Source of the DNA: Cyanidioschyzon merolae
Lineage: Eukaryota
Strand: one strand, 5' to 3'
Length of the DNA: 64,000 bases
Assembly (NCBI GenBank): GCA_000091205.1
Contig: AP006500.2
Part shown: one piece after another, positions 2,762 to 55,920 of the stretch
Position numbering within the stretch: position 1 is the first letter of the stretch
How the letters are laid out: each line of letters begins with the position of its first letter
Program-made: the position numbers and the translations under genes
Notes under the pieces: generated by a model
Database searches by the model: none
Told to the model about the DNA's origin: nothing
The model's input: only the letters and a program-made list of their open reading frames with translations

Positions 2762-2833
2762 GCCGCGTTCGCCACTACTGTACACCGCTGGCGACAACGT
2801 TTTTCTTTTGAAAGGCGTTTGTTGTTGACGGTG

Positions 2834-4021: not shown

Positions 4022-6035
4022 AAACGACGCTGTCTACTACTGCTTAAGATGACAGCTACAGTTGTTAGCCAGCGGCGGCCGCAGGCTAAGAACGCGTCCT
4101 GGATGACAAAGGCATGAATAGCGCCAGAATCCATTGCCCAGGTCTAGGACGGAGGCAGTAGCGAGTCGCTCTGTTCGGGAGCACGCGCCTGCTCAGCGTC
4201 AGATCGCTGACGACAAGCGATGGACGCATACTATGACGACTCTGAACCTGCGCTCTCGTCGATGAGCCGGTGTGCTGCGGAGCGTCATTCGAGCAAGGAA
4301 CGGCGTCAGACAGGCGAGCATCATCAGTGCCTGAGGCGCGGCCATCGCTCGCAAACGAGTGCACTGTCGACAGCACTTGACGTTCCCGCACTAGGCATGC
4401 GAGTGCATACTATCGATCGAAAGCGGACACGTGCCCCAAGCATTAGACAGTGGACCCATTTTCGGCAAATGAACAGGGCAGTAATCTGTGTCAGTAATCA
4501 TAAGCAGATGGTATGGGAGGAGATATGGATGTAGGCGAAGTGGCGTCGCTTGGTACGCTCAGGGAAGCTTTCTTGCTAAGCGCATAGCACCTTGTTGCTG
4601 CGAAACGACACGTCTGCACAAAAGTCCCTGTATGTCGATTTTCTGCTGTTCGCAAGTCATGCGCTGTGGAAGCGCTGCCGACTCCTATGCATAGTGCTGA
4701 CACAGCTCTGCTGCACTACTCGCCGAGCGAGTGACGTGCCTGGGTTTACCTTGTGAAATCGTAGGTTCCGTTTCCTCGAACAAAAGCCTAGCACTCGATA
4801 CCGCTGTGCTTGCATGCGACTACGGCAAATCGTCTGTCTCAGGTACCGACACCCGTCGCGCAAGCGGAGACCCTCTTGGTCGACTAAATGATCCTGCAGC
4901 CCCCAAAACGACAACAACAGAACATGCGTTGCAGCGCAGACAAGACCGAGTCTAGGCGGATTCGCATTTGCTCTGTGCTACAAGCAGAAGACCCCTCCGA
5001 ATTCGAAATTTCGCTGCAGTTGCATTTCGGACGAGTCGGTTGAGCGGGTCTAATCAAAGCACCGAAAATAACTCGTGCGACATGGCCATGAGCGCAGCCT
5101 CAAGCTGGAGCGGTAGCCGTTCCTGGAACACCCATGTGGGCGACAACGATCAGCTTCCCTGGAGTCGGGTATACGCGCTTTCCCGACGGGAGAAGATTCG
5201 TATCTTGCCTCATCTATACTGTCTTGACATGCCGCCACACGGGCCTACTTCTTACCGGACCAATCGAGCGAATATGTGCAACCAAACGAATGCCATCGCA
5301 CAGCGAGACCACCAAGCAATCCATCACTTGAGAGGATCAGCTTGTCATGTTCTGGACGGCAGCCCGCAGCCATAACTTGCGTACTGCGACGACGGAAGCG
5401 ACGTGCTTGGTGGCACACGCTGCGTCCTATGGTGCCGCTCTCGGTTCCAAACAGACGCCGAGATATACCATCACGAAGCCCTGTTGCAGGACGTTCACAG
5501 GATGAGGCGGGTACAGCCTGCGCTTCCCACTCAGTCCAAGTCGGGGAACGATCCAGCGCATCTACAAGCCCAGCGAGACGACGTGTCGCAGCCGTCCGAG
5601 CCACTTTTTCTATATCCTCGGCAGGCTCATGCCTGGTGTTGGTACCGCTAAGCGAACCAACAGCTGACGTACTCGAGGAGCGTGTGCGCACACCAGGTCC
5701 AGTGCGGCTCGCTGCATCCGCAGATGACGATCCGAGCGCTTGCGTTCCAGAAAGTGTTCGTGGACGCGACGCTGACGCCGTCACCAACCGGACATCGTCG
5801 AGGACTTTTCGAATCTCTGACAAGTCCGTAGCATCGGACAGCGCGCTGCGGCGTGTGCGTCTCTATGGCGTTTCCGGCGGTGATATCACCGGCGTCGCCA
5901 GCCCTGCAGCCGGTGACGACTCCACATCCGAACTCGGGCACGCTGCCGCTGGTGCACTAGAGTTCCGACACCCGCCTGCGTGCGGCTGGGATAACGGGCA
6001 TATTCGACTTGTTAGTCCGCTCACGCGTTTTCAGT

Positions 6036-6418
6036 GCTGCTGCTGATCACTACTGATCTCTAATGACTGCTGTTGATTGCTACTGATCATTACTGATCAT
6101 TACTGATTGCTACTGATTGCTACTGATTGCTACTGATCGCTACTGATCGCTGCTGATTGCTGCTGATTGCTACTGATCATTACTGATTGCTACTGATCGC
6201 TACTGATTGCTACTGATCTCTACTGATTGCTACTGATTGCTACTGATCGCTACTGATTGCTACTGATCGCTACTGATCGCTGCTGATCTCTACTGATTGC
6301 TACTGGTCTCTACTGATTGCTACTGATCGCTACTGATTGCTACTGATTGCTACTGATTGCTACTGATCATTACTGATTGCTACTGATCATTACTGATCTC
6401 TACTGATCGCTGCTGATG
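6036..6418. repeat. Decamer minisatellite (tactgattgc and variants), about 38 units
   Basis: Direct visual tandem repetition. Variant units include tactgatcgc, tgctgattgc, tactgatcat and tactgatctc. Confidence 0.9.
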
Positions 6419-6420
6419 CG

Positions 6421-6450
<30 letters not shown>
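6421..6450. repeat. (GGC)n microsatellite, about 9 units
   Basis: gacggcggcggcggcggcggcggcggcggtacc lies directly after the decamer array. Confidence 0.9.
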
Positions 6451-8492: not shown

Positions 8493-10479
8493 CAACACAG
8501 CATCAATGCCCTGGTGCACGAGTCGCGAAACTAGACTCGGACGTGAAGTTGACGTGTCGGAACACTCGTGTCGACCAGACGTTGTTCTCGAATCGTCATG
8601 CGCTTCGGTTTCATCGGTAGCGGGCGCACTGCTTCCAGGGCGCTTTGCCTACAAGCACATATTCATCGCGCTTCGCTGACGACAGGCAAACGCATGGCAC
8701 GAAAGCGGTTCCAAGAGATCCGGTCTGAGGGTGACGGTTCCGGCCTAGTGTGTCACCATCTTTTGCATGACCATGCCGATTCATCATGACCGCTGCTTTG
8801 CCCGAGTGTGCAGCGTTCAAGGGACTGCTCAAGTGCTAGAGCAGGTAAAGACCCGCTGTGGGGTATCGCTACAGTAAAGAGGTTCGTTCCTTCGCGGATG
8901 CGTTCGTGCAGCTGGCAGGGATGAAGCGCGGTTGACGCTTTCGTTTTGTATCACGTTCGCAGATAGAGGAATCGTCCACGATTCCGTGTTACAAGCCTGT
9001 GCTGGTATTTTCCGTGAATTCTGGAAAGCGGGCGTCCCAGGAACCGTAAGATGAAAGTCCAGGCCAACTCAAGAGAACCGATGAGCGTCTCGTGCAACGG
9101 GAAGCACCAAGCATTTTCAAGCGCCCGAGCACCGCTTATCTCCCGGAGTCGTCGAGCGCTTCGACACTGGCTTTCGGTGACGTCTCTGACAATCGTCCGC
9201 GGGAAGCGACACTGGCCTGGCACCGCGTCTGGTGTCGACGATATTCACGAACTGCTTCCGCTCCCGAGAAGCGTGCACTTGAGCCTCCCCGTGGGATCCG
9301 CAGCGTGCTTCGGCGGTTCCTCGAAAGGTCCGTAGCGCTCGAGCTCGAGCCCCAAGCTTCGAAAAGCGCCTGACATTCCTCGTATGCACTCCAGAGGTAG
9401 CCTGTGATCCAGTTCGGCGTTGCTTGGCGTTCAGCTGCTGTCGTCGATGATGGTTGCACGGTCGCAAAGCCGCGGCATGGTAGGCGCACCTGGGGTCTCT
9501 CTCAGAGCGACGCTCGTCTCGCCAAGTAGGCATGCAACAACACCAGTTGTCATCGTCGTGGTCTGTGGTGTAGCTGTGCAAACCTGCTGAGCTCAGTGAC
9601 GCTAACTTGCCGGTGCCCGTCCATAGAAGTGGTGCATCGTCTGCCCTAGACAGTATACAGAGAGCAGTAGTGCGTGGCGGAGCACCAGCACCAGCACCAG
9701 CACCAGCACGCCTTTTTTGCTGTTGTTTCTTGTATCTTGCCGGCATTCAACATGAGCATTGTAAGCTTTAGACTGGAGAGCGATCGCAGAGAGATTTCAT
9801 GCTGTCATTGCTAGCTTGTGGACAACGACCCTATCAAGTCAGTCATTTTATGGTCGCAGGTCGATAAACCGCCCATCTCATCGTACTTATCCTGATTGTC
9901 ATGCGTTCAAACCCGACGTTATCAGAATCTTTTCGTACCACTAGCTCCTCGCGAATCCATTCCAGTGCAAAAGTTCTCTGAGAGAAACTGCGAGAGACGG
10001 GAAAAAATGTCGAGTTTCTGTACCATGGATACGAACGGTGTCGAAGAGCCACTGATGGACACAGGGGAACGTGCGCTTCCGCGGGAGACCGTCGCCCACG
10101 GAAACACATGCGGTTGATGTCGTATGGTAACGCAAACGCTTGTTCCAGGAGCGACGAGTGTCCTTCTCAAACGGTGAGAAATCACCCGAGAGAAGTGGTT
10201 GACCTGAGCATCCATACTCAACGTGCGTAAACCCGGTGTTCTTAAACAAGAGACAAGTGATTATTCCAACAAGATCAGCCCGGCGGCGATACTATCGTGA
10301 CCTCGCCTACCAGTCGCCAAAAAGACAGCACCGTCGACCAGCTCAGCCTTCGTCGGGGGCACGCATCGTGGCCTCTCCTTTCGACATTCTTCTGTGCTGG
10401 TCTTAGGAAACGTCGCTTTCCATCCCTCGAACGCGGTCGAAGAGTAGGCGGCTGACATTGGCGTGGAGCCGCTCTTCGT

Positions 10480-10870
10480 GTCAGCGCCTATGCTCAGTGG
10501 TTCGATCCTGTCCAAGGCGCCTTCTCTGTTGTCGTATGCCATTTTGATGCTCACCGGTCAGTAGACGAATCGTTCGTATCCTTGACACAGCTCGTGGCAA
10601 AATCATTTTCGTACAAGTCGTTCTCTGTCTTCACCAGCTCTGAACTGCTGTGTTGGTGCGCAGCACGCGTGCTAACGAGAGCCGCAAAGCGCGTTTCGGC
10701 CCATGGGCATGCTTGCGACGAGAAAGATAACACAAGTTACTTGACGAATCGTAGATACGTACATAGAAAAGGCGAGTTGCGGATCCACCGATCTTCCACA
10801 GCGTCTGCGTTTCAAAAACAAAAGAGAACGGATGTGGGGTATAGCGGCCACATCCATGGCACCCTGCGGA
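10480..10870. repeat. Dispersed repeat family 2, copy 1 (about 390 bp, unclassified non-autonomous element)
   Basis: Shares colinear blocks with 32690-33060. These include tccaaggcgcc, gacgaatcgttcgtatcc versus gacgagtcgtccgcgttc, gctgagctgctaggttgcttcgctgctcg versus tctgaactgctgtgttggtgcgcagcacg, gcgcgtttcggccc, and gcgtctgcgtttcaaaaacaaaagagaacggat. Confidence 0.55.
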
Positions 10871-14027: not shown

Positions 14028-14396
14028 CTAGGCAGTAGCTTCCATAGCGCGGTAACTTGCGGCATTCATGCTTCCACAGGGCCTAAGTTCGCGTCCGCGA
14101 TCCCACACAATGGACAAGTGAACTCCGCCGGGTGTGTCCTGCACCTCCGCCATCGACTGGGTTCGCTCAACGCATCCCCGGGGATTCGAGTTTGTGTATT
14201 GCTTCGGGTTTTCTTCATTGTAGATATCTAGGCTCAACGTCCCTTGCCTCATTTTCCGGGATGCTCGACAGTGGTGGGTATCCGAGGCATCCACCAGTGC
14301 CCCGCTCCAAATATGACGAGGCCCGTCTCGTTTCGGACAGGCCTTCTTAATGGCTTCCAACTGAATTGTGTTATACCCCCAGGTGCGCGTCATCAA
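14028..14396 (-). CDS. Small hypothetical ORF (122 aa) with a weak MsrB/Mss4-like C-terminal resemblance
   Basis: The segment GGVHLSIVWDRGRELRPCGSMNAASY loosely resembles MsrB GGHLGHVFDDGP...RYCINSAAL. Its 5' end abuts Fanzor-derived copy B. Confidence 0.25.
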   Translation of the reverse strand: MMTRTWGYNTIQLEAIKKACPKRDGPRHIWSGALVDASDTHHCRASRKMRQGTLSLDIYNEENPKQYTNSNPRGCVERTQSMAEVQDTPGGVHLSIVWDRGRELRPCGSMNAASYRAMEATA

Positions 14397-14907
14397 GTGC
14401 TTTTTTTCGCGGTTTACAGCAGAAGCGTTCCAAGTGTGTTTATTTTCAAAAAAAAAATCGAGGGCATGTTATGGACATGCAAGTCAGGGATCCTGGTGGG
14501 CCTCTATCGCTGGGTGCCGGAGAAAAACAAGAAAATCCTCATGTGATCGAGCGTCGAGCGAAGAAGAGCAGCTGGCGGAGAATCAGAAAAAGAATACTAG
14601 GGGCGATAAGCGAGATACGGTTTTCACCCGGCTGTACGATGACGAGACTCTTGCCGTACAGCGGGCACGAGTTGCAGTGATCTTTGTACTGGTTCCATCA
14701 ACCAGTTGCAATAGAATCGCGGAGTTCGTGAACCGAGATTCCATCGCCGTCATGGTTGTCAGCCGATTTACGTTGCTGAAGAGGAGACCCGCGGCGCTCA
14801 CGCGAGCCAACTTGTGGGTCAGCCTCCCCGGCTCGGAGTGTACAAGGAGAAACAGAGCCCGATAGCAGTCAGCCGGTCAAAAACGGCTGGGAGGCGTCTC
14901 CTTCCGG
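14349..14907 (+). mobile_element. Non-autonomous internally deleted Fanzor-family element (copy B)
   Basis: The 5' end actgaattgtg...tcaagtgctttttttcgcgg and the ORF start ATGGACATGCAAGTCAGGGATCCTGGTGGGCC match copy A. A remnant EFVNRDSIAV is followed by the 3' module gatagcagtcagccggtcaaaaacggctgggaggcgtctcc. Confidence 0.65.
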
Positions 14908-16862
14908 GTATTAAGTTTCGCTCCATGGTCTTGAAACGTCTATGGCTTTGCGGACTATCTAACTCGCCGGAAAATCGGGCTGTGCTGCAGTAGTATTTCA
15001 GCGCTTCCCTGTGGTTTCCTCTGTTGCTTCGTTTTCGTTCTCTTTGATGCAGAGTCAAGGAGACCGAACGAGTGCCCTTGAATTCAGGATCAAAGGAAAA
15101 ACGTGGTATCGCGTTGACAAGGTTTCAACTGATGACTCGAACAACCCGACGAATGTTTGCTGTGTCGAACATCGCGAAACGATTGGGTATCGTGCCAACG
15201 TGTCTTCCTGGTGCATCCATGTCGTATTTAAATACAACATTGAACTGCTCGCACTGGCCCTGCTTTTCGATCTTATTCCAGAACTTGTCTAGATATACAG
15301 CGTCGACATTCGGTGTGGGACCATAGCGCCGTCCGGATTCATATATGGATTTAGAGTTCTCGGTTGTGATTTGGGATAGGCTTCATTGTCGCCTTGGCAC
15401 TGGAATGCTTAACTTCACCGGATTCAGGATGATTCGCAACATCCCTGACCAAGGATGCGTAAAATAATCGATACCATTATCCACTGCATATGTACAAGAG
15501 TACACGCTTCTCATTTCCTAAGGTGTAGCACGCTCAACTCTAGCATTTTTCAAATTCCGATTTTCTGTTTCAGCGACACTCGAGAGCGCAGCAATGCGTT
15601 CCGCTTCATTGGCGATGCGGGAGACTCGACGTCGCCGCTTGGGGACCTGTTCACAAGCTCATGCCTAACGTTCACTGAGCATGTAACCTCAAACAATTAC
15701 TTCTGATCGAAGAGGCAAATCGTTCTGTCGTTGAGGCCACTGACGAAACCGTATTCGACGGCATCGTCATGTCTCCCGCGGAATATGTCCCCAGAAGCTC
15801 CTCTTGCCTTCTGTTTCTTTCTGTAGGGAAGTATCATGGACTCGGGCTTGAGTCATCAGAGCAATGGCTTCCGGTGAGGCGTGCGTCATCGCCTTGCGCA
15901 AAGGCAGCATGGACGGATCGGAAATTCTCGACTCGGTCTCCAGCAAGAATTCGCCTTCCGGTACTTGTTTGATCGTAGACAGCATCGCGTTGAACAAATC
16001 GTGTATCGAATGCGACAACGTGTGTTTGCTCGTGCCGCGTCCAGGAAACGCTCCGAGCGGATCACCCAGACAAAGTCCAGTATCGTATTCTACGGCACCG
16101 GGCCCCGAAACGGAGGTTTGGATCCAAGAGAGCCCTCTCCATCTATGAAAAGCACGTACCGAGCGCGATGAATCAAGCGTTCATGCGCGGCAGAGTAGTT
16201 CCCAGAAAAAAAAAGCATATAGAAGGTGGACGTACGCGAACATCTACCCACAGTCAAGTGTCATCGATACGAATCGCGCGCCGAGGCGGTGTACAAAGGA
16301 AACAAAAAGCCCACGCGATGTATCGATCGTAACTTTTCCCGCTGCATGGAATGCGTCGATTAAAGCCGGAAGCAGCAAAGTCGGAATTCAAACGCTGCGA
16401 TCAACATCCTTAGACTGCTTACAGACGATCTCGAGGGAAAGGAGAAACCGTCGAACGTAAACCTAGAAATAAAACATAGGAAATACAGCTTTCGCAGAGC
16501 AATCCTTCAAAGGCTGGTGTTGATAACAACGGGAAGAAGCTCCAGTTTATTGTGTACATTCGAGTTCATGAAATGAACCCGTTCCATTTTATGCCGACAT
16601 TCCTGGAGCGGCACGACAGGCAACGCAACGACCTGCCGGCTGGCGACGCGTAGACCGTGGCGCCACCCCGTGTCCCGCACCGCACGGCACCGCACAGCAA
16701 CGCGCTCTTCAAGCGTACGCTCTCTGAACGCCGGGTGTGTCGTCAACGACGAACGCCCCTGAGCCGAAACCCTGTGAGTCCTTCACAAGAGTCTGGTGTT
16801 TCTAAATTGCTGTGAGCGCGTGCGGTGGGGTTTTCTTGGCCTGCTTTTGGATCGAAACTCGA

Positions 16863-24736: not shown

Positions 24737-25846
24737 TCACGCTCGCGATCTCGTTGCAAGCAGTAGCGCACGAATATGGCGTGCACAAATGAGAATACCG
24801 AAACGTCCCAGGTCAGTATCTGCCTTGTGTGAAGAGGACCACTTGCATCGACCTTCGAGGATGCCGATCAAGCGAGGATCCGCATCTTCTGCGTTCGCCG
24901 CTGCCTTCGAGCTCAATGTTGACACCTCTACCACCGGGGCACCGCAAAGTCCCCATTCCAGACGCTCGTTGCTCTCGATCATATGCCGACCTGCACAGGC
25001 TTCGCCCAAATGTGTTGAAATCCGCAAGCTCGGGTGTAAATCACAGAGCACCGCGCGCCTCTCTGTATAATAGAGCGCCGCCTTCCCGAAGGCATCGAGT
25101 TCTTCGGGCCCTTGACCCTGCGACTGCTCCCAGCCACTCAGCTGGACTTGAACGCCAGGGGCCGGCGATGCGCACTGCTCCGTTGAAATCCTCATTCCAT
25201 AGGAATGGGGTTCGGCCCCGAGACTAGCGATCATCGCTTGTGGATCTCGGATGCGGAGCATCGCAACGTCATGACCCGCGGGATGGAACACCACCATCGA
25301 TGGATCCCCCGGAGCATGCTCGCGTGGCAGCTGTAAGTCCGCCGACGTCCGTTGATGTGTCGCCATTACCAACACCTCCACCGGCGCTATCGAGGGTGCC
25401 CCAGCGATGCCACTCTGATGCGCACCCGCTGACGTAGCCGGGACGCACGTACTGCTAGGCAACAAGTGCGTGTTCCGAATGCGCAAAGATGCGTCCGCGT
25501 CCTCCAGTGCTGCTGGAACGTCTCGATCCAGGGTAGCGCCACCCGGCCCGATACGATGAACGGGCCACGCGAGCCGTAACGCACCGTCCAGCGTACGAAA
25601 CTCTAGCACATGTCGGCAGTCGATGTCGCGGACGTATTGCAGCCAGCCTTGGGGGAAGTAGTGTCGAAAGCGTTGTGGCGCCGCGACATGAGCTGATACA
25701 ACAGCGTGCGCGAAGCTCGCGCCTTCACTGTCGCCATGTACAAAACAGCCCGAGCCGCGGGCGAGTAGTTCGAAGCTGGACATGCCGAGACGTGCGCTTC
25801 GGAACCACGAAGCGTACGACAGTACTGATGCGAGCTGCTTGGCCAT
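24737..25846 (-). CDS. Hypothetical protein (369 aa)
   Basis: A long ORF. The only motif noticed is WGLCGAPVVEV near the C-terminus. Confidence 0.3.
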   Translation of the reverse strand: MAKQLASVLSYASWFRSARLGMSSFELLARGSGCFVHGDSEGASFAHAVVSAHVAAPQRFRHYFPQGWLQYVRDIDCRHVLEFRTLDGALRLAWPVHRIGPGGATLDRDVPAALEDADASLRIRNTHLLPSSTCVPATSAGAHQSGIAGAPSIAPVEVLVMATHQRTSADLQLPREHAPGDPSMVVFHPAGHDVAMLRIRDPQAMIASLGAEPHSYGMRISTEQCASPAPGVQVQLSGWEQSQGQGPEELDAFGKAALYYTERRAVLCDLHPSLRISTHLGEACAGRHMIESNERLEWGLCGAPVVEVSTLSSKAAANAEDADPRLIGILEGRCKWSSSHKADTDLGRFGILICARHIRALLLATRSRA

Positions 25847-27162
25847 TCGCGACGGTTCCAGTTAGGTCCTGGTGCCAACCAGAGCGCTTTTGAAGGAAAG
25901 GATCGTCCCCGAGGCCGGGGTCTGCTGAGAACTCCAGCCCTGTCCGAGGCAAACGTGGACCGTTCGCGTCACCGTTCAGTGGACGGGGGCTCCATTCATT
26001 GTTGCAGCACGCACTGCCAGAGAGCCTGATCGTCCAGAGTAACTTGTACCGAAGCCGCTAACGCTCAACCAAAGCTCCGGCACGGCGGACTCCAGGGTAT
26101 CCAAAGTGGGAAGGTTTGTCGCTGCACTGCGTCAAACAGTTTCCTAGAGCAAAGTTGCGTTCCAAGTCGGGTCTTCTCTAGTCTTGCAGGTCAATAGTGT
26201 TCCGCACCGGACGTGTGTCAAAGCGTGCGATTTCATGGTAGAGAGCATGCGATCGAAATCACGATGCAATATACCATACAGATCGTGGACGAAATGCCTG
26301 TACGACATATGCTTTACTGAACAGTACAAGGAGGACTGCAATCTTTCTTCGGGTGAGTCGTACATCAGTGCTCAAATGGCTGAGGATCACTGCAAGAGAG
26401 AAGGATATGCTCTCCGTGCCAAAAACTGATATGTTCAAAGTCTGCTTCCAGTCTATGGCAGGGAACGGCCCGTTGATCACCTTACGGAAAGCGAAAGCGA
26501 CGATAGCGGCTGGCACAGGCATCCCTGTTTCACAACCTCTTGTTCGCGTGGTCCTTAAAACACTGGGAAAAAAGTCGTAATAAAACAGTCCTAGTTCACG
26601 AACGCCCATTTTCCACCGAAATCGCATCTGCAGTATTCCTGGAGCGTTGAGATCCGCGTGAAGCGCGTGGACATTGGTTTGTTTTTTCAGTCGACGAGCC
26701 TCCCTTCGGACGAAACGGTCGGGACGTACATGGGTATTCGGGGTGAAGGGAGCTTGGTGTCCAAACGATTGAACTCGGAGAGATCGACAAGATCCTCTGT
26801 GGTCGTTACAAGGGATTCATCTGGCGGCCTCAGTTTCGCTCTTGCAGAATACTCAGACAACAGCACCCGCTATGTCGAATCATCGAAGAGTTTTCCCTGG
26901 CGTTTGGTGACTTGATTGAAAAACGTGGTATTTCACCATTCGCCTTGCATTCGAGCGTTTGCCGATTCTATCAGGGGTATAGCTGTTTTCCATTCCTTCG
27001 TAGAGTCCATGGTTCAACCACGCATCGACGGATGATTTTCTATCGCGAAGCGTATTGATCGCTCCACTGGGCAAATCGCTGGAGCGTTCACCAAGGTGAG
27101 CCGGGGGCAAATGTCGACTTTCTTCCTCAAGTCCCTCTCACGCCGAGAAGGCCCTCAACTAG

Positions 27163-27559
27163 GGACATCACGCAGTGCATTCATTTTCAAAAATAAGAAA
27201 TCTAATGGATGCGCTGGGTTGTACACCTCAAAAGGTTGGGATGGAGAGAAGGCAGTGGAGCGCTTCGGCGATTGAAAAGCACGGAGAGCTGACAGAGCAC
27301 CAAACGGCACTGAGGGCAAGAGTTCGAGGAATCCTTGCAATGATGAGTACCACCAGCATCAGTAATCGCATGGAATTCGTAAACCGAGGCTTCAACGCTG
27401 CTATCCATATCAGACGATGTACGTTGTTGAAGACGAGACCCGGGGATTTGAGGCGAACCAACTTCCTGGGGCAGCCTCTGATGCTCGAAGTGTGCCTAAA
27501 GAAACTGATTCCGATCGCATGCGGCAGATCAAAAAGACTGGGCGGCGCCCGTCAGTTGG
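27163..27559 (+). mobile_element. Non-autonomous internally deleted Fanzor-family element (copy C)
   Basis: The 5' start of the ORF is retained (ATGGATGCG...). The ORF 27175-27564 encodes RARVRGILAMMSTTSISNRMEFVNRGFNAAIHIRRC, colinear with the copy A C-terminus. It ends with the 3' module gatcgcatgcggcagatcaaaaagactgggcggcgcccgtcagttgg. Confidence 0.65.
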
Positions 27560-28358
27560 TATGAATTCAGTCTGTATTCATTTATAGGAACAGAAACGAA
27601 CCTTTATTTAGGAGCGAGATAACAATCCCGTTCTCTATCTACGATAAGCGTTGATAGGGGGAAAGTTTCCGCATGGTCGAGAGTTCGCCTTCTAGGCGGA
27701 AGGCCAGCGAGACGGACGAGTCTACCAAGCTCGTGCTTCATGCTTCCTCCAGTGGCAAGTGTTTTAGTGAGATCTGAGCAGCTCGTCCGCAAAACGCAGC
27801 TCATTCTGGGATCAGGTGCAGTTAGGCTGCATCTGGGCGTCGCCCTGGTCGCAGTGGACTCCTAGGATATCGCTTCACGCTGCCGCAGGCTGTACGTCTG
27901 CCAGTGCAGCTTGCAGGCTCGCAGAATGATCATATACTTCGACTCCGTATCAGGTGAAGCGTTCCTCGATCCGACGTGCTCAGTGGCGTGCCAAAGCCGT
28001 TCTATCCCCATGATACATCTGCTCCAGCGATATAAGCGCCACGGCGAGCGCACAAAACAGGTACTCGGTGAACGATACAACATACGAAACGGCCAGTATA
28101 TCCGAAAGCAAGTATGGGAGATGGAAATTCAAGGTAGTTGCTTCATGACGGGCGCTTTCCCGAAAGCCATGATCCATCCCGCAATCTGGGATTCACGGTC
28201 TATGTAAACGTATTTGCATCGAAAAGGAATCGGACATAAGTGCGGGAACCGCTTTCTGTCGAGAGCGACGTTCCCTTGTATGCCCGTGGCCTCCTCTGGC
28301 TGTGCACGGTCTTCATGCGTCGTTCGCTTCCATCTTTTCCTGATTTGAGACGCTGAGG

Positions 28359-29885
28359 ATGCACCGAACATACCCAGGTGCCCTGGACAGTGTCTCGCGT
28401 TGGTTACAGCAGCAGTCTCGAATGGTGCCCGCCGAACAAGGCTCTCAGCTAAGAGCTTTCATCAACTTCAACCAGAGCGACGCGGCGCGTTTACAACAGG
28501 TTTACGAGGAAAAGCTAGTGCAACGACTCGCAGCTGAACAGCGACTACAGCAGGTTCGTCAACAACTAGCCAGTGCCCAGGCGAGACTGCTCCAGCTCGC
28601 CGCTGCTGCTCCTGCTATCGAGTCGGACGCTGATCCTGCTGCACAAACCCGCCGGGTATATCGCTTTTTCCGCGACGCTCAAACAGCTGTTTATGGTGAC
28701 GAGAAACCGGCACGGCGAAGTCGGTACCGACCTGAGCCAGTTCGCAGCGAGCAGGCAGCACCAGCATCGACTTCTCCGCTTGCAGTCGATCCGACGCTCG
28801 AGCGCGTATCCAGTGTCAGCAACCAATCCCATAGCAGCGGAAGCATGCCCGATGCGGACGATGCTCGAGCTCCCTACGCAAGCGCTTCGCTCGCGGCAAA
28901 AGTCACCGAGCCGCCTCCGAGTATACACTGCGCTATCATTGCAAGGGCCATCACCGCGTATCGAAAACGACGCGAGGCGCCCCGTCAACCGAACCTGAGC
29001 GACTGCTTGCCGCCAGCAACCATTCGGATAGCAGCACCAGGAGGCGGAGGCGGAGCGCAGGAGCCAACGATATCGAATATTCACATCGGAGACTGGGTCT
29101 GGGTCATCTCCTACCTAGATCGGAATCATGGGTTGTGGCGGTGTCTTGTTCGACCGCCGCGATACCGTGGTCAAGGCCGATTAGGGGTCTTTGCGACGAG
29201 GTCTCCGCATCGCCCAAACGCGATCGGTATCTCCCTGGTGCAAGTCTTCGATATGCAGCCAGCGGTCTCGTCAGCGTCGAACGAGGCGGCCACAGTGGAC
29301 CTCATTGTACGCGGTTGCGACCTCCTGAACGCGACACCGATTCTCGGCATTGAACCCTATCAGCGTGCGTTGCACGATCAGCCGCGAGCGCGAGTTGGTT
29401 GGCTCTCGACGGAAACAGCGCTCACGATGCCCATCTGGGATGATCTGCTGGCATCAGAGGCAGCACGGGTGCCAGTGCGCGTACTCTCCGACGTGGTTCG
29501 TGACAAGCTGCAGTGGCTCGTTGCTCACCTACCGGCAGTGGATATCGAGGCTCGCCTGCGCGCCGTCGCCTTTGCTCAACAACAACAACAACAACAACAA
29601 CAGAAACATGAACATGCAGCTGCGAAGACCGGTTCGTCAATCAACTGTTGGCTACCTCCTGGTGATAACGGACGAGATACACTATGTTTGGGTGCATATC
29701 GACTCCGCTACCGCTACGATGAGGCGTCGGGAACGTTCTACGTGCTCGATATTCAGTCCGGTTTGCGAGCTGCTGTTCTCCAGAGTCCAGATGAGCGCCA
29801 AACTGACCCGGAAGTTGCCGAACACTGGGCATTCTGTGAGCGCTTTGAGTGCTTTCCTGCGAGCACGCCAGCACCAACACCATGA
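28359..29885 (+). CDS. TrmO/TsaA-family tRNA methyltransferase-like protein with a long coiled-coil/low-complexity N-terminal extension and an internal polyQ
   Basis: The TsaA-like core is IGDWVWVISYLDRNHGLWRCLVRPPRYRGQGRLGVFATRSPHRPNAIGISLVQVFDM. A (CAA)n run at 29575-29610 encodes polyQ. The ATG was verified at 28359. Confidence 0.65.
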   Translation: MHRTYPGALDSVSRWLQQQSRMVPAEQGSQLRAFINFNQSDAARLQQVYEEKLVQRLAAEQRLQQVRQQLASAQARLLQLAAAAPAIESDADPAAQTRRVYRFFRDAQTAVYGDEKPARRSRYRPEPVRSEQAAPASTSPLAVDPTLERVSSVSNQSHSSGSMPDADDARAPYASASLAAKVTEPPPSIHCAIIARAITAYRKRREAPRQPNLSDCLPPATIRIAAPGGGGGAQEPTISNIHIGDWVWVISYLDRNHGLWRCLVRPPRYRGQGRLGVFATRSPHRPNAIGISLVQVFDMQPAVSSASNEAATVDLIVRGCDLLNATPILGIEPYQRALHDQPRARVGWLSTETALTMPIWDDLLASEAARVPVRVLSDVVRDKLQWLVAHLPAVDIEARLRAVAFAQQQQQQQQQKHEHAAAKTGSSINCWLPPGDNGRDTLCLGAYRLRYRYDEASGTFYVLDIQSGLRAAVLQSPDERQTDPEVAEHWAFCERFECFPASTPAPTP

Positions 29886-31703: not shown

Positions 31704-32689
31704 GGGTGCTAGCTCCCGTCACAGATAATCAAGACACACATTCCGGGGACCGGAACAGCGCAAGGTCCCCAGAAGCCCCGTCCAACGCTCTGTTTCCACC
31801 AAGGCACCGTGTAAACCGATAACGGGTGCGTTGTTTATCCACCAGCTTTTCAGGCTGTGATGCTTCCTTATGGGGCACGAAAATTTCTGGACCACCCGGA
31901 TCAGCACGTCCTTTTCGTTCTCGTTTATAGTTCACTCGCAGATGCTTACGAATAGCATGAGATGAAAAAGCTCACGCAAATACTTCATGCTGTCACTGGT
32001 AGTTCGTGGAAGACGACGACCTTACCTGTAAAAGTCAGTCATTCCATGTGGAGCACGTAGATGAACCAACGAACCAACAACCCGTCTCGTAGTCCTTATT
32101 CTGAGTGTCGTGCACCAAAACAAATGATCAAAAATCCCTTGTGCACAACGATCGCCCCGCCAATCCATTCCACTGCGTAGGTATCCCACGAAACACTCGT
32201 AGACGAACATCAGCATGTGCACTTTCCATACCATTGATACGAACGGTGATGAAGAGACACAGATGCGCAAAGACAGCAAAGCATGCCTGTAGGAGAGATC
32301 GTCCCGCGATGAACAACCTACCATCGGTTTCGTGCTGAAACGTGAACGTCCCGTCGCACGAGGGACAGAAATATGCCTCGTTCAGTCAATGCGACCTCGT
32401 TCCGGAGGTATCGAGGACTTGTCTACGGATACCCAGGAGGGAGCAATCCGCTGTTCGTCAACAGGACACCAACGAGCATTCCGAGAATACCCGCTCTGAC
32501 GGCTATTCAATGATGACGTCAACTGCGAGCGGTCAGGACGACAGCATCGCTCAACGCGTCATCTTTCGTCAAAGCGCTATGTCACTTGTCCTTCTCCTGC
32601 CCAAGGGCTCCCGTCCAGCTCTTGGACAACATCGCATACGACGACTGACAAGCGGCCAACGAATGCGACGCTGACACTGGCGTTCCGCT

Positions 32690-33060
32690 GCCCTTCATGC
32701 TAGCCTATTCGCCTCGCTTCGAGCATGTCCAAGGCGCCGTCTCTGTACTCAGACGCCGTGCTGATGCTGAGGTACCGATAGACGAGTCGTCCGCGTTCAC
32801 GAAACCGTCATGCAACAAGCCGTTCTCTGCCCTTAGTAGCGCTGAGCTGCTAGGTTGCTTCGCTGCTCGAGTCTTGCAGGGAGTGGCATACGCGCTTCGG
32901 CCCGTGTGAGATCTCGCGGTGAATAAGGTAACGAGAGCCTACCCGAAGAACCACAGACGCGAACAAGGGTAGGGAGCGTGAGTTTCGGAGCCGCCCATAT
33001 CTCAGGGCGTCTGCGTCTCAAGAAAGAAAACGGATATAGGGTCGAGGGATCACAGTCCTG
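32690..33060. repeat. Dispersed repeat family 2, copy 2
   Basis: Colinear similarity blocks with 10480-10870 (see that feature). Confidence 0.55.
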
Positions 33061-36455: not shown

Positions 36456-36720
36456 GGCGCTGCGCAGGCCTGCGCGCTCGGGCGGATCCCGAACGCGCGA
36501 TTTGAATGGCTTTCGCGCCATCGCTGCGTGCGCCTGTGCGGCGATTTCCGGATCCAGGGGGCAGCGGGAGGGGCGTTTCGCCCGCAGGCCTGCGCGCTCG
36601 GGCGGATCCCGAACGCGCGATTTGAATGGCTTTCGCGCCATCGCTGCGTGCGCCTGTGCGGCGATTTCCGGATCCAGGGGGCAGCGGGAGGGGCGTTTCG
36701 CCCGCAGGCCTGCGCGCCCG
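36456..36720. repeat. Tandem duplication of a 121-bp unit (about 2.2 copies), GC-rich
   Basis: gcaggcctgcgcgctcgggcggatcccgaacgcgcgatttgaatggctttcgcgccatcgctgcgtgcgcctgtgcggcgatttccggatccagggggcagcgggaggggcgtttcgcc is repeated. It lies upstream of the GT8 ATG and inside the extended GT8 ORF. Confidence 0.85.
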
Positions 36721-39700
36721 GCATCTTTCGCGCCATTGCCGGATGTGTGCCTCGTTTACGGATGGTATGTCGGATCGATGCATCCAAACAAAACCATCGG
36801 AAGCGCGAGCGGTGCCATGGATTAGGCGAAAACTAGCTTTGTGCTCTACATTCGCCTTTGCACCTGCATACTCCTAGTTTAATGATGGTGTCGAATCGAT
36901 GGATTCTCCAGGATTCCATCGGATGTGAGAGCATTGCTGGCAATCAGGGGAAAGACTAGTGCTCGACTGGAAACGCAACCACATGGCCGTATGCACGATC
37001 GCTCGCGGGAGCGTGCACGCATGCAGAGCGTTCGCGTGGTGTTGCCTGCGCTCGCGCTCAGCTTGAACGGCGACTTGAGGCGCTTGGAGACGCTTTGGGA
37101 GGAGTGAAAATTCGGACAAAGCTGTACCAGTGGTCCACTTGGCATTCGTATGATATGTAGTTGCTCCTGCGGTATTCGTCACAGCGTTATATGCTTGGTC
37201 TCATCGGAGGAATGCATGGTTTGTAATATGAATTCGAAATGACTTTTACTCGCTTTATGGTTTCAATTTGTGTTTTTGTGTTATGCGGGCATGGTTGCGG
37301 TGCTGGGCGCCCCGCAGATCACCGTCCTACCTCCGAGTCATATGACACTGGGCCACCGCACTGATTGCCGGGCGTCAGCTTTGCGATATTTTCTGAGTTT
37401 TTTGCTGGGTGTACAGCCTTGGGATGAAGCATGAAGCAGTAAAGGGCTATCCGTTCATGCGTAGTTTTAGGACTTTCGGTCGTCATTTCGGAGTGGCACG
37501 ATTGACACATTGGTGCTGGAATTCGCAACAACATCGGCATCAAGATGATTCGCGACGCCCTCGAACAAGGGTTCCATTCATTACCGATATCATGATCTAG
37601 CTCATACGTACAAGCACCGAATATTGTTCTGTCCTGTGTGTAGTATGCGCACATGAAGCATTCTTCAATTTTTCGATCTTTTTTGTTTCATGGGAACTCG
37701 GAGACGCGGCTACTCGCTCCGCTGGGTTGATGAGGGGAAAACTCGAGAGCGTCGCTTAACGACTGCTTTAGGAGGTGATGCCTAAAGCTCAATGAATTTC
37801 GCAAATCAATGTATCGATTCCGTTCGAAAGGCATAGCCACCTCTCCTCTTGGCAATCGGCTACATGGAATTCTGCTGCTGCTGCAACAGCAGCAAGATAG
37901 TTCTCAGGCGATATGTTTCCAGGTGCTCGCGCCTCTTCTGTCTGCATGGAAAAGAGTCTCGGACACGGAATTTACTCATCGCAGTGACCGCTTCGAGTGG
38001 ACAGTGCTACGCTGCTTTTGCACCGTACGAGCGCATACAGAACGACCTTTCTCGACTCGAGTTCCAGCCTGGATATTCCGTCCGGTACTTGTTTCTGCAT
38101 GAATAGCATCGGGTGCCACAAATCCTCTATCGAATGGAACAGCATGCGCATGCGTGTGCAATGGAGATACTAGTCGCTAAGCGGACCACCCAGAGGCAGC
38201 CCGTGAACCTGGGGTACGGCACAGGGCTTGGAAGGGGGCCAGCGCTTCGCCGGGTGCCTTCTATTCCCTCCAACGCCATGTACCGAGCGATGCAGCAAGG
38301 CGTCATACGCCACCGGAATGCCCCCAAGGTAAAATATATGGTGGATACGTGTAAAAGCGCTGAACAAAGTCCAGTGTCGCCGCTGCGAGGGAGACACCCA
38401 GTTCGTATGAAAAGAAAATGGAAATGAGAAGCGAAGCCTTTACTGCAGCCTTGCGCCTGTGCATGAAGTTTGTCGACAACAGCCGGGACCACCAAAATCG
38501 GGAAGCGAACGCCACCGTTAACATCCCTCCACTGCTGACAGCGGAGCTGGGGTTCCAGAAGAGCTGGTCTTTTTTAAAGCCGGATATGAGTGAGCAAAAA
38601 GGAAGCGACCACCGAGAATCCAGCAAAGGCTTGCGTTGAAGACTATAGAAAGAGACCGAAACTTTAGAGTTTAGCCTTAATTGGCAAACTGGACCCCTTC
38701 TTCTAGATGCTGACTGGCATGCACCACCCATCTCATCTAAAAATCGCTACACACTGTCAGGCGGCTCCCCGTATTGCCTATCACTAAAACTCACAGGTTT
38801 CGGCGACGCGCTCAGTGCGTGCCATATGCCGAACAGCAAATCCGTCTGATTCGAGACCTGTTGTGCGGGCGCCCTGAGAAAGGCCATTTCGCACAGACAG
38901 CCAATGGTCCGACTGCGCGTGCTCCCTCGACACCCTGCTTTGAGACTGGCCGTAAGGCGCCGCATCCCGTGGACGACTCTTACATTATTGACAGTGTTTT
39001 TACACATTCCGCTCGATGCACCAGTTGGAATATGAAAATGCCTCGCATTGGCAGTAGAATTCATATCATGGATATGCGGCATGCGTCAGTTCGGAAAGCT
39101 GGATGAGCGGGACGGCCGGTCACCGAAAGAAGAGCGCAACCTCAGAGCTGATCGACGCAGTCCCGAGCGAGCCAGTACGTGAGTTTGTGCTATCTTCGGC
39201 CGGCTGACCGGTTCCCAACTGCGTCAACTATCTCTGTTCGGCAGTCGGCAGCTACCTCCATGTAGTTCAGCGAATGACGCTTCTCGCGGACGCGCACTGG
39301 GCTGCAAGGATCGACTCGAGCTCAAAACCGGTTCTAGCACGCTGAATACAAGCTCGGTTCCGTGCAGCATTTTGCGCTTATCAATCAAGAGCCCGTCCAG
39401 CACAATGGTAACGGTGCGGTAGTCCATTCGCACTCAATAAAGTGTCCATGAAACGCAACTCGGACAAAAACAAACAACCTGCGGCTGTTCACGGGCACAC
39501 TGCCTACGCCAGCATATTCGTCACTGTCATCGCACTCTTTTCCGCGCGCGCAGCTACCAAACCTAGCCCTGAATCGTCGATGAAATTGAACCGTTGTTGC
39601 GGCATCCGCCACGTTTGTAGCCGTTTCAGAAGAAAGCTCATAATATCGCCCAGGCAGTCATGAAACGAAGCGCCGTGGTTATGACGTCGCATCGATGATA

Positions 39701-40560: not shown

Positions 40561-40918
40561 CTCACGGAAGACGACTGCAGGCTCCGGGAGGCTTATCGCG
40601 CCGGTCAAGCACCTTGTCAGATGTCGAGGCTCAACGCTGGTGCGTATGGGCGAACTCAAATACGTGTCCACCGGATCAAGGGCACGATGTAAGCTCCAAT
40701 GATCATGAGACGCAATGAATTAGTCAAGTCCTACATAATCGGTTCCCCTGAGGCGCAAAGAGACAGCAGCTTGGGCAGGACTGTGAATTGGTCGCTGTCC
40801 TGCGAGCCTAGTGAAAGAACGGTGTTGCTTCGTGGTCGTTTCGTGGACCCTGACAACCGAGACAAACCGCTCTGTCAATTCTTTCTCCGGAATTGTGTTC
40901 CGCCCCCCAGATGTGTGT

Positions 40919-41417
40919 ACTGAATTGCTTTTTCACAATTTATACCATGCGCATTCGAAGTATGTTTATTTGAGGAAACAGAAATCTAAGTGAAAGGCAT
41001 GGACATGCAAGTCGGCAATCCTGGATGACAGTCAATGCCGGCTGCCGGAAACAATCCTCCTCTTGTCGACCATCGAGCGCAGAGGCGCAAGTGACGACGA
41101 AGACGAAGAGGGCGAATAGGCGAAAAACAGTGCCTCCCGACGGGACGATAACGAGACTTTTGTCGCACAGAGGGTACGGGTCTGAGAAATCCTTGCAAAG
41201 GTGCGTTCAACCGGTGTCAATGTACGCAAGGAGTTCGTGAGCCCAGACCTCAACGCCGCCGTCAATATCACACAATGTGTAGCACTGGAGACTAGACCCG
41301 CGGAGCCGACGCGAGCGAACTTTGCAGGGCATCCTCTCCCGCTCGATGTGTACAAGCAGAAACTAAAACCGATAGCAGTCGGACGGTCGAAAAGGGATGG
41401 GAGGCGTCTTCCAATGG
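40919..41417 (+). mobile_element. Non-autonomous internally deleted Fanzor-family element (copy D)
   Basis: The 5' end actgaattgcttttt and the ORF start ATGGACATGCAAGTCGGCAATCCTGGA are retained. A remnant KEFVSPDLNAAVNITQC (RuvC-III with D intact) is followed by the 3' module gatagcagtcggacggtcgaaaagggatgggaggcgtcttccaatgg. Confidence 0.65.
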
Positions 41418-41750
41418 TTTTCCATTTACCCTACACGGTCGTGGGACATTTTTTGTTTCACGAACATTTATGTATATTGGGGAATAATTGCATCAGAGAG
41501 GTGATTGTTGCTTGCTTCCGCTTGTGGTGATCCACGCCGACATCTCCACACCATCGAAGAACGATGTGCATCCGTCCGCAAATGACGCATCCCGCACATG
41601 CCTCCTGCTCCTACGATGACTGTCTATACGTTGACGATGCGAACCAAGCCAAAGACAAGTTTAAACAGAAAAACCTCGCTTTCGTCGCGCGATGTCGTTG
41701 ATATGCAGCGCCGGTCGGGATCACTCCTGTTCACGGGTACGCACCGTGCG

Positions 41751-42266: not shown

Positions 42267-43493
42267 ACAAACGGCGACAAGGCAAACCGAAGACAGCTAT
42301 CCACCACTTTTGCGATTCGTCTCCAAAAGCGGTACCAACGAGCGCTACGTGTCACTAACGAACGACTTTCCGTTGAGTAGTCACCAATAATGCAACCAGT
42401 TTCCCCGAGTCAAGCGAACAAGCGCTGCGTCCCGTTTCCAGAAGCGTACAACCCCTGTATGGACCCGCGCGGTAGTTGTCTGAAAAAAGGCCTCTTCAGC
42501 CGCGTGACGCCGCTCGAACAGAGTCTTATCAGTGAGCTACCAACCAAAGCAAAGATTCTCTTAAATAGCAACCTTGCTGATCCACGTCGCAAAATCACGT
42601 ACCAGATAGCAGTATCTGCTGTAGTACCACAAACTCCGCTGCCTAGACGCCGTCGTGTGCAGCGCAATGACCAGCGCAGACGCGGATCGAAAATTCCGGT
42701 GCATCGCGTGACGGCCTCCGCAGTCGCATCGCCTTCTTGAGCGCCGTATTCCCTTTCTATCTGGGAGATGATCTGTCTCAGGGGTGGTAGAAGAGACCAG
42801 ATACCCTCGGGTACGCGTACATGACCAGGATTAACCGAATAAACAGAAGATGTTCCCGTTCCACGCCTCCAGAACAAGACTTTCCTCCAGAACAACATCT
42901 CCTTCGTGCGTGTGTACGATACGTATGCTGCATAGCCGCGTGCCGCACGAGTCAGGACGACTCTGAGACCACAGCAAACGAATGAAAGACTGTTTTGGGT
43001 AGCATGCTGGATGCCCGGCTCACGACTGACGCCACGACATTCGTATCATGCCGCGTCCACTGCTTGTGCGATACGCAAGTACAAGCGTGCGGTTCCATGC
43101 ACATGCAGCAGAGCTGCGGTTCGGCGCACGTAGGTGCATCCTGTGCCTCGCCATCCCTGAAAGAGACAACCGGGTACGGCACCTTGTCTATCGACGGTTG
43201 TAACGTGCTCCCGCTGGTTGCGGCGACGCTCAGGGCTTTGCGCGAACTCCTGGCGATCCATGCGCTCTGTGGGCGTACACCTATGCGCTGCTGCTGTCGT
43301 GAATGCTGTCGTCAGTACCGTCGTTATCTTCGATGCCGTTTCCGACGCCCACACAATGATCCGGAGCGATGCGAAACGGCATCTCGTCTCGAAGCTAGCG
43401 ATACCATTCGACGCTCGCGCATTCACTCGAAAACATGGAACAACCACTCGACTGGACGATGAAACCTACGCAGAAACAATGAAATAAAGACAT

Positions 43494-43713
43494 ACACCAT
43501 GAAAGATGCGCATATACACTGGACGAGACTGTCGTGCCGCACGCGCGCCCCCCCGCCGCCAGCACTGGAACCCGCACGAGCAGTGTTGTTCCTCGTATCA
43601 GACATACACCATGAAAGATGCGCATATACACTGGACGAGACTGTCGTGCCGCACGCGCGCCCCCCCGCCGCCAGCACTGGAACCCGCCCGAGCAGTGTTG
43701 TTCCTCGTATCGC
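43494..43713. repeat. Tandem duplication of a 113-bp unit (2 copies) upstream of the M28 peptidase gene
   Basis: acaccatgaaagatgcgcatatacactggacgagactgtcgtgccgcacgcgcgcccccccgccgccagcactggaacccgc...gttgttcctcgtatc occurs twice, at 43494 and 43607. Confidence 0.85.
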
Positions 43714-48030: not shown

Positions 48031-48149
48031 ACTCGTTTCAAACCTAGAGCCTGTACGTCTTCACCAGGCCGTATGTGTGGAGAGCGTTGCGTGGGTCATG
48101 CTGCCACCACTCGGCACGCGGGATCGGCGGTTGGCATCGGAAATGGCGG

Positions 48150-48695
48150 CGTTGTGCGCGTCCATCGCTGAGGCGCTGCGTTCTGGAGTTGTGTGGAGGC
48201 TCATGATGGGCGCTGCGTTCTGGAGTTGTGTGGAGGCTCATGATGGGCGCTGCGTTCTGGAGTTGTGTGGAGGCTCATGATGGGCGCTGCGTTCTGGAGT
48301 TGTGTGGAGGCTCATGATGGGCGCTGCGTTCTGGAGTTGTGTGGAGGCTCATGATGAGCGCTGCGTTCTGGAGTTGTGTGGAGGCTCATGATGGGCGCTG
48401 CGTTCTGGAGTTCTGTGGAGGCTCATGATGGGCGCTGCGTTCTGGAGTTGTGTGGAGGCTCATGATGGGCGCTGCGTTCTGGAGTTGTGTGGAGGCTCAT
48501 GATGGGCGCTGCGTTCTGGAGTTGTGTGGAGGCTCATGATGAGCGCTGCGTTCTGGAGTTGTGTGGAGGCTCATGATGGGCGCTGCGTTCTGGAGTTGTG
48601 TGGAGGCTCATGATGAGCGCTGCGTTCTGGAGTTGTGTGGAGGCTCATGATGAGCGCTGCGTTCTGGAGTTGTGTGGAGGCTCATGATGAGCGCT
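48150..48695. repeat. 37-bp satellite array, about 14.5 units (cgctgcgttctggagttgtgtggaggctcatgatggg)
   Basis: Period 37 was verified at 48211 and 48248. The variants are gatggg versus gatgag. Confidence 0.9.
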
Positions 48696-48716
48696 GCGAG
48701 TCTGCTGCGAATCCCT

Positions 48717-49874
48717 ACCTGCTTTTGCACCTGTCTCGGATTGAAATGGATCACAGAGCTGCTCATTCTGTTCCTGCGCTGAGGCTTCTTTCCGAACTGG
48801 TTCTAGACATAGAGAACCTCGACATTCGAAGTGCAGCAACACGAGCATTCGGATCGATACCTAGTTCTAGGATGCGGGGGCGTCTTTTCCGAGTGATATA
48901 TTCGAAGAATACTTGCGGATGGAATTCGTTGCGTTGCTGGAGTCAAAATGATTCGCGGAGTGTCATCGAAGATGCGTTCGTAAAATATCCGATATCATTA
49001 AGCAATGGATATGTACGAGCCTCCAGTGTGCGCCTGTGCTGATGTGCAGCATCCCCGTACCGTACACTCTTCAAGATCCCTGTCTGGGTATCTCATGGAG
49101 AATCGCGGGCGCTGTGATTCCGGTCGATTGATGGACAATGATAGATACTCGACGTCGCCTGCGCACGACTGCCTCACAAGATCTTATCGCAAGTTCAGTG
49201 CAACGCTCGCGTCCAATAGCCGATTCCGTTCGAAAAGCAAATCCTCCTGTCTCGATCGCGATCGACGAAGCGGGACGCTGCACCGAGGTGACGCCCCCGA
49301 CGGGATACGTCCCGAGACGATCCCGTCTCTCCAGGCTGCATAGACAAGTATCTTGGACCGGGACTCGAGTCATCGGAGGTACCGCTGCCGGTGGATCGAG
49401 CGTCACTGCTCGGCACAAGCGAGGAGCGTAGACGGATCAACGTATCGCGACTTGACCTGTTGCCAGGGCTCCTCTTTCGGTGCTCGGTTCGTCACGTACA
49501 ACATCGCGTTCCACGAATCATCGATCGAAAGGGAGTGCGTTCGCTCGCACGTGTATCGGTCGGATTACGTGCCGCTGGGATCGCAAAGAACAAGCACGTG
49601 ATCACAGTGTACGGCAATGCCGGCGGTTACGGACGAGGGCATCGACGGTATCCTTGGGTACTCGTCGAGGGCATGCAGCGCTCGATGATGCAAGTATTCG
49701 TGCGCCACTGGGCGGCTCTCGGAGGAGGAGTAGGGAGCGTGCTGGGCACCAGACGGCACCAGACCACAGCCAGGTATCGACGATGCCAGGAGCACAGCGA
49801 GGCTCTATACGAAGAAGATGAAAATAGCAAGCGAGGCTTCGGTCGGAGCTTTCGCCTGTCTTTGGAATACGTTG
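48717..49874 (+). repeat. Left arm of a large inverted repeat pair (about 1.15 kb, about 99% identical to 57918-59063 on the opposite strand)
   Basis: ORF 49480-49821 and ORF 57973-58314 (minus strand) encode 113-aa products differing at one residue. The boundaries were mapped by divergence after ctgcttttgcacctgtctcgg and ctttggaatacgt. Confidence 0.85.
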
Positions 49875-55610: not shown

Positions 55611-55920
55611 CGGGAATTCGCCGACTGCGAGTTACCGCGTCGAACGACGGCGCTCGCAAATTCCTATCATCCGCCGTCGCTATACTAGCTTTATTGCTAG
55701 AGTGTCATCCTTCGTTTTCACGAGAACTCGTAACACTTTAGGTATTGAGTTCCTAGTGAATCTTCTTGCCGACGTGAAGAAGCCACTGAAGAGGAATTGT
55801 GAACCAGTGTGTGTGCCGGTTTCGGGTGTAACGCAGCTGGCGCTGTAGCATCGTGTACCTGTTCGGTAGAGAAGGTGAGCAGCGCTGCGCGTGGCGGCTG
55901 CTCGGCTGCAGCGGCACATC

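Follow-up and report, generated by a model that had tools for sequence, protein, structure and literature searches.

The sequence at 27163-27559 (copy C) is most probably part of a dead, non-autonomous internal-deletion derivative of about 1.4 kb, which stems from a two-gene transposon containing a transposase and a Fanzor1 gene; we put the probability of this reading at roughly 85%. The parts of this element and its adjoining repeat are listed below. The window, to which all positions refer, is the complete stretch of 64,000 nucleotides from Cyanidioschyzon merolae that was analyzed; three of its ORFs match proteins of strain 10D exactly.

26178..27172, + strand: 5' arm, composed of the left-terminal ~77 nt and a degenerate IS630/Tc1-mariner (DDE_3) transposase pseudogene (homology to metagenomic loci, Pfam, tblastn)
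27173..27211, + strand: remnant of the Fanzor leader up to the ancestral start codon; the ATG at 27209-27211 is the deletion junction (leader profile, common junction)
27209..27564, + strand: relic of the last ~117 Fanzor1 codons (CMe-1A 2737 to ~3095) with the stop codon at 27562-27564 (nhmmer, blastn)
27565..27576, + strand: beginning of the short-family 3' tail; the terminus lacks its final ~26 nt (tail profile)
27588..28221, - strand: full-length copy of TE-N2_CMe (= CMe-1A consensus 1-633), inverted; a neighbour outside the element (blastn)

Results

Setting and extent of the element

A repeat search identified four related stretches in the window, at approximately 2532, 14699, 27350, and 41208. 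Besides copy C, these are copy A (83-2817), copy B (14329-14951), and copy D (40880-41461). Copy C is located in a 2.5-kb spacer between a minus-strand ORF of 369 amino acids (24737-25846) and a TrmO_N gene (28359-29885; Pfam E 3.8e-21), whose 5' end is 0.8 kb away. Its initial description as intergenic and upstream of TrmO is therefore correct.

Metagenome contigs were scanned by motif and subsequently mapped by profile, which yielded dozens of copies of the family; the sister copies of copy C come from metagenomes of related organisms. Six places begin at exactly the same profile position as copy C (2361/2362). The same junction together with homology over ~1 kb upstream was found at L028/L128, L058, L122, and L105, and the junction alone at L139, where the contig ends. 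Because the sister copies share both the deletion junction and the upstream region (26178-27172), the real unit measures ~1.4 kb. On this alignment evidence, copy C appears to be the 3' quarter of an element spanning ~26178-27576 and not a standalone unit of 400 bp. The initial annotation had regarded it as the shortest member of the family, which does not hold, given a true extent of ~1.4 kb compared to ~580-620 bp for copies B and D.

The sister loci contain neither TrmO nor the gene upstream of the spacer, and their pairwise identities of 65-71% are star-like. These copies are therefore not orthologues; one defective element inserted independently at each locus. Five independent metagenomic loci carry the deletion junction of copy C. 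One of them, L105 (973-2316, minus strand), combines the C-type junction and the transposase arm with a 3' tail of the long type (CMe-1A), which suggests recombination or mosaicism between subfamilies. A search for an empty site, in which the metagenomes were scanned with TrmO peptides, found nothing, and the element is present at every orthologous locus from the near-identical strains (L002, L003). In the next relative (L005-L007), whose TrmO is 50% identical, the upstream spacer is different and short and gave no Fanzor match.

Affiliation of the parent family with Fanzor1

CMe-1A is the Fanzor1 family of C. merolae and comprises ~150 copies with ~80% identity to a consensus of 3169 bp (Bao & Jurka 2013, Mob DNA 4:12). 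It was described as unclassified, with no inverted repeats, no determinable target duplication, and no transposase, and the initial 635 bp of its consensus were recognized as a separate repeat, TE-N2_CMe (Bao & Jurka 2013). Copy A corresponds to CMe-1A 660-3169 at 85-88% identity; its TE-N2 part is probably cut off by the start of the window. It is a frameshifted pseudogene (~83-2817) whose stitched translation displays Fanzor1 hallmarks (...ETDGVALCV...). The stitched protein alone gave no match in Pfam or PDB. An intact relative of 752 amino acids is 72% identical to copy A, and more distant relatives display the classic CxxC...RDDNAARNI motif and a Cas12f1-like TNB domain. As the single copy-A protein was insufficient, a profile was built from ten intact relatives; it matched SpuFz1 of Spizellomyces punctatus (8GKH) over ~300 residues (E 1.2e-4, 23.8 bits). 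This match and the published assignment agree, and the parent family thus belongs to Fanzor1.

Copy A shows several frameshifts and stops, and 16 bp separate its 3' end from the first ATG (2834) of a KTI12 gene. Further long copies likewise end just 5' of genes on the same strand, for example that of IF-2 in L009; in L014, an ORF with a DAO domain overlaps the end of the Fanzor ORF. Within the Fanzor ORF of copy A, a 75-bp tandem repeat occurs at 1545-1842, just 5' of the RuvC-I strand. The number of units varies: one is present in the published consensus, three in copy A, and four in P0001.

The 3' block and the deletion junction

Positions 27209-27576 correspond colinearly to the 3'-terminal part of CMe-1A, the published Fanzor1 element. 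Compared to the family of long copies, 27210-27559 matches profile positions 2362-2720 with an nhmmer E-value of 4.2e-43. By means of blastn, copy C aligns to CMe-1A consensus positions 2737-3010 with 73.7% identity (E 1e-41), and a profile search extends the match to approximately position 3095. The Fanzor reading frame is kept in this block; its translation reads ...ALGCT...RARVRGILAMMSTTSISNRMEFVNRGFNAAIHIRRC....

The part preceding the 3' block was compared with a leader profile that had been built without copy C. The leader remnant at 27173-27209 is the top non-training match of this profile in the entire window (E 0.21 over 128 kb), and the match stops exactly where the 3' block starts. 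The remnant is short, and an E-value of 0.21 would be significant only given this position. The sequence at the junction, (A/G)TGAGCTGGGG, is common to L028/L128, L058, L122, L105, and L139; the C-type junction includes ...AAGGAGTGAGCTGGGG.... In terms of CMe-1A, the start ATG (906-908) is joined to an internal ATG (2737-2739). The deletion comprises 1831 bp and does not preserve the frame.

In copy C, the ancestral ATG (27209-27211) is out of frame with the Fanzor C-terminus. Since this is the ancestral start, the in-frame ATG at 27205, which is specific to copy C, is fortuitous. The open frame of copy C comprises 119-129 codons (27175/27205-27564). The proposal that a leader with the ORF start is joined to the C-terminus stands: the leader (27173-27211) and its start codon adjoin ~117 colinear C-terminal codons, the ancestral ATG being in another frame.

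The catalytic residues of a nuclease are missing from copy C. It starts at CMe-1A 2737, and the RuvC-I Asp, part of the GxDPG strand, is deleted, the DPG motif being located near consensus position 2200. Also absent is the RuvC-II Glu region with the [TS][TS] motif (DEFRTS) that precedes the zinc finger, as is the upstream YKECA; both DEFRTS and YKECA are located before the junction, and the translation of copy C begins with ALGCT. At RuvC-III, the Asp is replaced by a Gly encoded by GGC at 27388-27390 (NRGFNAAIHI). Intact relatives contain NRDFNAAINI at this site, and the other copies with the junction of copy C retain GAC. The Asp-to-Gly exchange is therefore specific to copy C. With regard to the C4 zinc finger (OrfB_Zn_ribbon), copy C retains a single Cys. 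Intact family members do not possess the C4 arrangement either, but contain YTHHELGC...C in place of CxxC...CxxC; the distant relative P0025 alone retains the C4 zinc finger (PF07282, E 2e-5). The initial annotation, which had noted the loss of the RuvC-III Asp (NRGFNAA) and had inferred an internally deleted Fanzor derivative that is non-functional as a nuclease, was right on both counts, as RuvC-I and RuvC-II are deleted and the remaining catalytic Asp is a Gly.

The upstream arm is a transposase relic

The consensus translation of the arm matches Pfam DDE_3 (PF13358) with an E-value of 2.6e-19 and 69.9 bits, compared to a cut-off of 28.6, and additionally displays a weak Tc3-type N-terminal HTH (PF01498, E 1e-4). 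The arm in the window matches residues 1-262 of the transposase consensus (tblastn E 1.8e-68), with stops and frameshifts. A DDE_3-type transposase with an HTH is thus present as a pseudogene, with the coding relic at 26311-27092 and the second catalytic Asp replaced (LKNVVFHHS).

The 5' 77 nt of the arm align to CMe-1A 786-862 with a score of 43 compared to a shuffle maximum of 29, and its last ~40 nt rejoin CMe-1A at approximately position 868. As both ends of the arm align to CMe-1A, the transposase segment is a clean indel of ~940 bp relative to it. The arm is common to at least 10 independent metagenomic loci at 67-71% identity and is always found beside the Fanzor 3' block. The same arm lies 5' of other Fanzor deletion derivatives (L049/L053, L102, L124, L023/L052, L027, and L111) and also 5' of one long Fanzor copy (L064).

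Two further, more decayed DDE_3 relics occur on the plus strand of the window at 32382-32756 and 10226-10533 (tblastn identities of 29-34%; E 3e-8 and 5e-7). No Fanzor fragment was detectable adjoining either of them.

Intact relatives with both genes

Homologues of the transposase that are intact exist; they comprise ~300 amino acids and are 44-50% identical. In the Cyanidiales data, no intact transposase with more than 60% identity was found. The two loci L140 (3-3382) and L141 (350-3428), both from public assemblies, encode a DDE_3 transposase of 298 amino acids followed on the same strand by a Fanzor1 homologue of 624 or 627 amino acids, respectively. The latter proteins gave no Pfam match and are homologous to the C. 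merolae Fanzor1 over its full length, as indicated by hhalign (probability 100%, E 9e-107) and by BLASTP to P0024 (E 4e-126). Both gene pairs are flanked by inverted repeats of 28-34 nt that start with TAYACTC.

Compared to the ends of the Cyanidiales copies, these inverted repeats showed no significant similarity relative to shuffled sequences (p >=0.09); a resemblance that had been noticed by eye was discarded for this reason. In the Cyanidiales copies themselves, terminal inverted repeats were not apparent by eye. Likewise, the flanks of 10 copies with 65-70% identity showed no consistent target-site (TA) duplication. For the transposition chemistry of the Cyanidiales copies, which would be of the Tc1/mariner type, the linked transposase is the sole guide.

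Element ends and the adjoining TE-N2_CMe

The ends of copy C had been considered conserved. This is not the case at either side, since the homology to the sister copies extends ~1 kb beyond 27163 and the 3' terminus is truncated. The alignment that the initial annotation had suggested as its own test does not support shared termini for 27163-27559. The 3'-terminal ~100 nt of the long copies were undetectable after B, C, or D. A profile of the short-family tail, built without the copies of the window, matches copy C at positions 1-73 only (27505-27576, E 1.2e-11), whereas B and D are matched to positions 105-111. In D the match extends to 41467 and in B to 14963, which places the right termini near 41461 and 14951. 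Since the profile matches copy C only to 27576, ~26 nt of its right terminus are missing. In direct pairwise comparisons of the B, C, and D tails, only B-D was marginal (p 0.02); this result is superseded by the test with the tail profile.

A copy of TE-N2_CMe adjoins the truncated 3' end. It is located at 27588-28221 and aligns to CMe-1A 1-633 with 82% identity over 638 nt (blastn E 2e-177). The sister copies are not followed by TE-N2, and the adjacency is therefore a local event. It is the TE-N2 end joined to the Fanzor unit within CMe-1A that abuts the truncated 3' end of copy C; a preference of TE-N2 for the ends of Fanzor elements is conceivable. The missing 26 nt were also sought beyond TE-N2, from 28222 onwards; there was no profile match, only a resemblance by eye.

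Copies B and D are colinear with each other through a junction of their own, at which ~50 N-terminal codons are joined to the ~90 final ones. They measure ~580-620 bp, their 3' termini are complete, and their architecture recurs at ~15 metagenomic loci. On the left, they end (profile positions 161-188) at CMe-1A ~786, as does the transposase-bearing type. B and D represent a truly short, amplified derivative. Of the features that characterize MITEs (less than ~800 bp, non-coding, both termini, multiple copies), B and D show a better fit than copy C. No MITEs were reported from C. merolae by the P-MITE survey (PMC3964958).

The window contains several other repeats. An inverted repeat of 1164 nt, 99% complementary, has arms at 48719-49882 and 57912-59075, 8 kb apart, and a 37-nt tandem array (48061-48800) adjoins one of them. 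Further tandem arrays have units of 10 nt (5958-6450) and 49 nt (55216-55656), exact tandem duplications of 120 nt (36463-36702) and 112 nt (43488-43711) lie inside ORFs, and a dispersed 111-nt family has three copies (15925-16035, 38049-38159, and 49444-49554).

Tests for present function

The element is kept in two strains that are 99.3% identical to the window. In the comparison of these strains, four of the 14 SNPs of the 2.5-kb spacer lie within the 397-bp interval; with respect to the Fanzor frame, two are synonymous and two are non-synonymous. The SNP density of the interval between the strains is hence not reduced. The differences from the consensus affect all three codon positions (35/28/50) and are mildly skewed. 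Copy C gave no Rfam match, and its folding showed no excess (z-score +0.21). Across 17 long copies, alifold found almost no covariation in the 3' region (covariation term -0.35). The guide RNA of TnpB and Fanzor systems overlaps the gene at its 3' end (Jiang et al. 2023). As a locus for such a guide RNA (omega RNA or fRNA), copy C has a truncated right end and gives no structure signal. We conclude that copy C is neutral debris with no sign of present function.

Discussion

The findings can be combined into the following scenario. The ancestor would have contained, in this order, a left end, a DDE transposase of the IS630/Tc1-mariner type, a short leader, Fanzor1 (a TnpB-like RNA-guided nuclease), and a right end. 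A single deletion of 1831 bp may then have joined the start ATG to the internal ATG at a microhomology of 3 nt, which would have removed codons 2 to ~611 including RuvC-I and RuvC-II and would have shifted the frame. The defective copy presumably multiplied by means of a transposase supplied in trans, whose source is hypothetical, and its copies would have decayed neutrally to pairwise identities of 65-71%. At the locus of copy C, the Asp-to-Gly exchange at RuvC-III was additionally acquired, and the last ~26 nt of the right end were lost where TE-N2_CMe abuts; TE-N2 presumably caused this truncation.

According to the initial annotation, copy C is a self-contained MITE-like Fanzor derivative of ~400 bp that retains both termini and could move as such. 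The architecture of a leader joined to a 3' block is indeed real, and truly short derivatives with both ends, namely B and D, exist nearby and at ~15 loci. However, the sister copies share ~1 kb 5' of the proposed start, the 3' terminus of the long type is absent, that of the short type is truncated by ~26 nt, and the 400-bp unit occurs alone at no mapped locus. The unit of ~1.4 kb, with its transposase pseudogene and truncated right end, leaves this view very unlikely. One might also suppose that a plain 5'-truncated Fanzor fragment came to lie beside an unrelated transposase relic by chance, without any true junction between leader and 3' block. The leader match alone is weak enough for this (E 0.21 in the whole window), but five independent loci show the junction in combination with the transposase arm, the arm is also found 5' of other Fanzor derivatives and of a long copy, and intact relatives have the same gene order. 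We consider such a coincidence highly improbable.

It could further be argued that the element was exapted as a guide-RNA scaffold, as a regulatory element of TrmO, or as a small protein encoded by the frame of 119-129 codons. In accordance with this idea, guide RNAs of TnpB and Fanzor systems overlap the gene at its 3' end, the 3' segment is retained in each of the three short derivatives of the window, and the frame of copy C is open. Yet the right end, where the guide would begin, is truncated; excess folding, an Rfam match, and covariation in the 3' region of the family were not found; the SNP density between strains is not reduced; the spread over codon positions is only mildly skewed; and only copy C has the in-frame ATG, the ancestral one being in another frame. 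Exaptation is hence hardly to be expected. Bacterial non-autonomous IS200/605 relics provide an analogue for satellites that borrow a nuclease in trans. By analogy, the short derivatives (B, D, and the C-type) might persist as guide-RNA-bearing satellites whose retention or homing relies on a Fanzor nuclease acting in trans. For this speculation, to which we assign a very small probability, the truncated right end of copy C would still have to yield a usable RNA.

The analysis has one by-product of modest use. Three observations suggest that the Fanzor1 family of C. merolae descends from a Tc1/mariner (IS630-like) two-gene transposon: the DDE_3 relic is located between consensus positions 862 and 868 in sister subfamilies, relatives with an intact transposase, Fanzor1, and inverted repeats exist in metagenomes, and consensus position ~786 is also where the short derivatives have their left ends. 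Consensus positions 1-785, i.e. TE-N2 plus ~150 bp, may have been a later add-on, as the same comparison suggests. Both the family and the association of Mariner with Fanzor1 have already been published; the novelty is small and consists in connecting the C. merolae family with a transposase. As neutral debris of a repeat family that is already published, copy C itself matters little. The transposase link would aid the annotation of repeats in Cyanidiales genomes, and L140 and L141 are a candidate intact Fanzor1 system for testing the clade.

Comparison with known systems

The Fanzor part of copy C aligns to the CMe-1A consensus of the same organism from 2737 to ~3095 with ~70-74% identity. 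The copy C element differs in that it contains a transposase-coding segment of ~940 bp where CMe-1A has 5 nt (862-868), does not comprise consensus positions 1-785, continues with another 3' tail after ~3090, and carries the internal deletion of 1831 bp. TE-N2_CMe, the 635-bp repeat that forms the 5' end of CMe-1A, adjoins copy C as a full-length copy of 82% identity; this repeat is a distinct one, lies here in inverted orientation, and does not occur beside the sister copies.

Like other non-autonomous transposons that arose by internal deletion, such as Ds from Ac, Tc1/mariner derivatives, and MITEs, the copy C element is a defective copy found with one deletion junction at several loci. In contrast to these, it is too large to be called miniature (1.4 kb), and inverted repeats are not recognizable.

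PUl-1 and PGv-1 are examples of Mariner/Tc1 transposons carrying Fanzor1 (Bao & Jurka 2013), and Mariner/Tc1-Fanzor1c associations have been surveyed by Jiang et al. 2023. The intact relatives L140 and L141 show this architecture. Although both genes are dead in the window copy and neither inverted repeats nor TA duplications could be shown for it, its organization is that of these elements: a DDE transposase occupies the 5' kilobase, and Fanzor1 follows downstream on the same strand.
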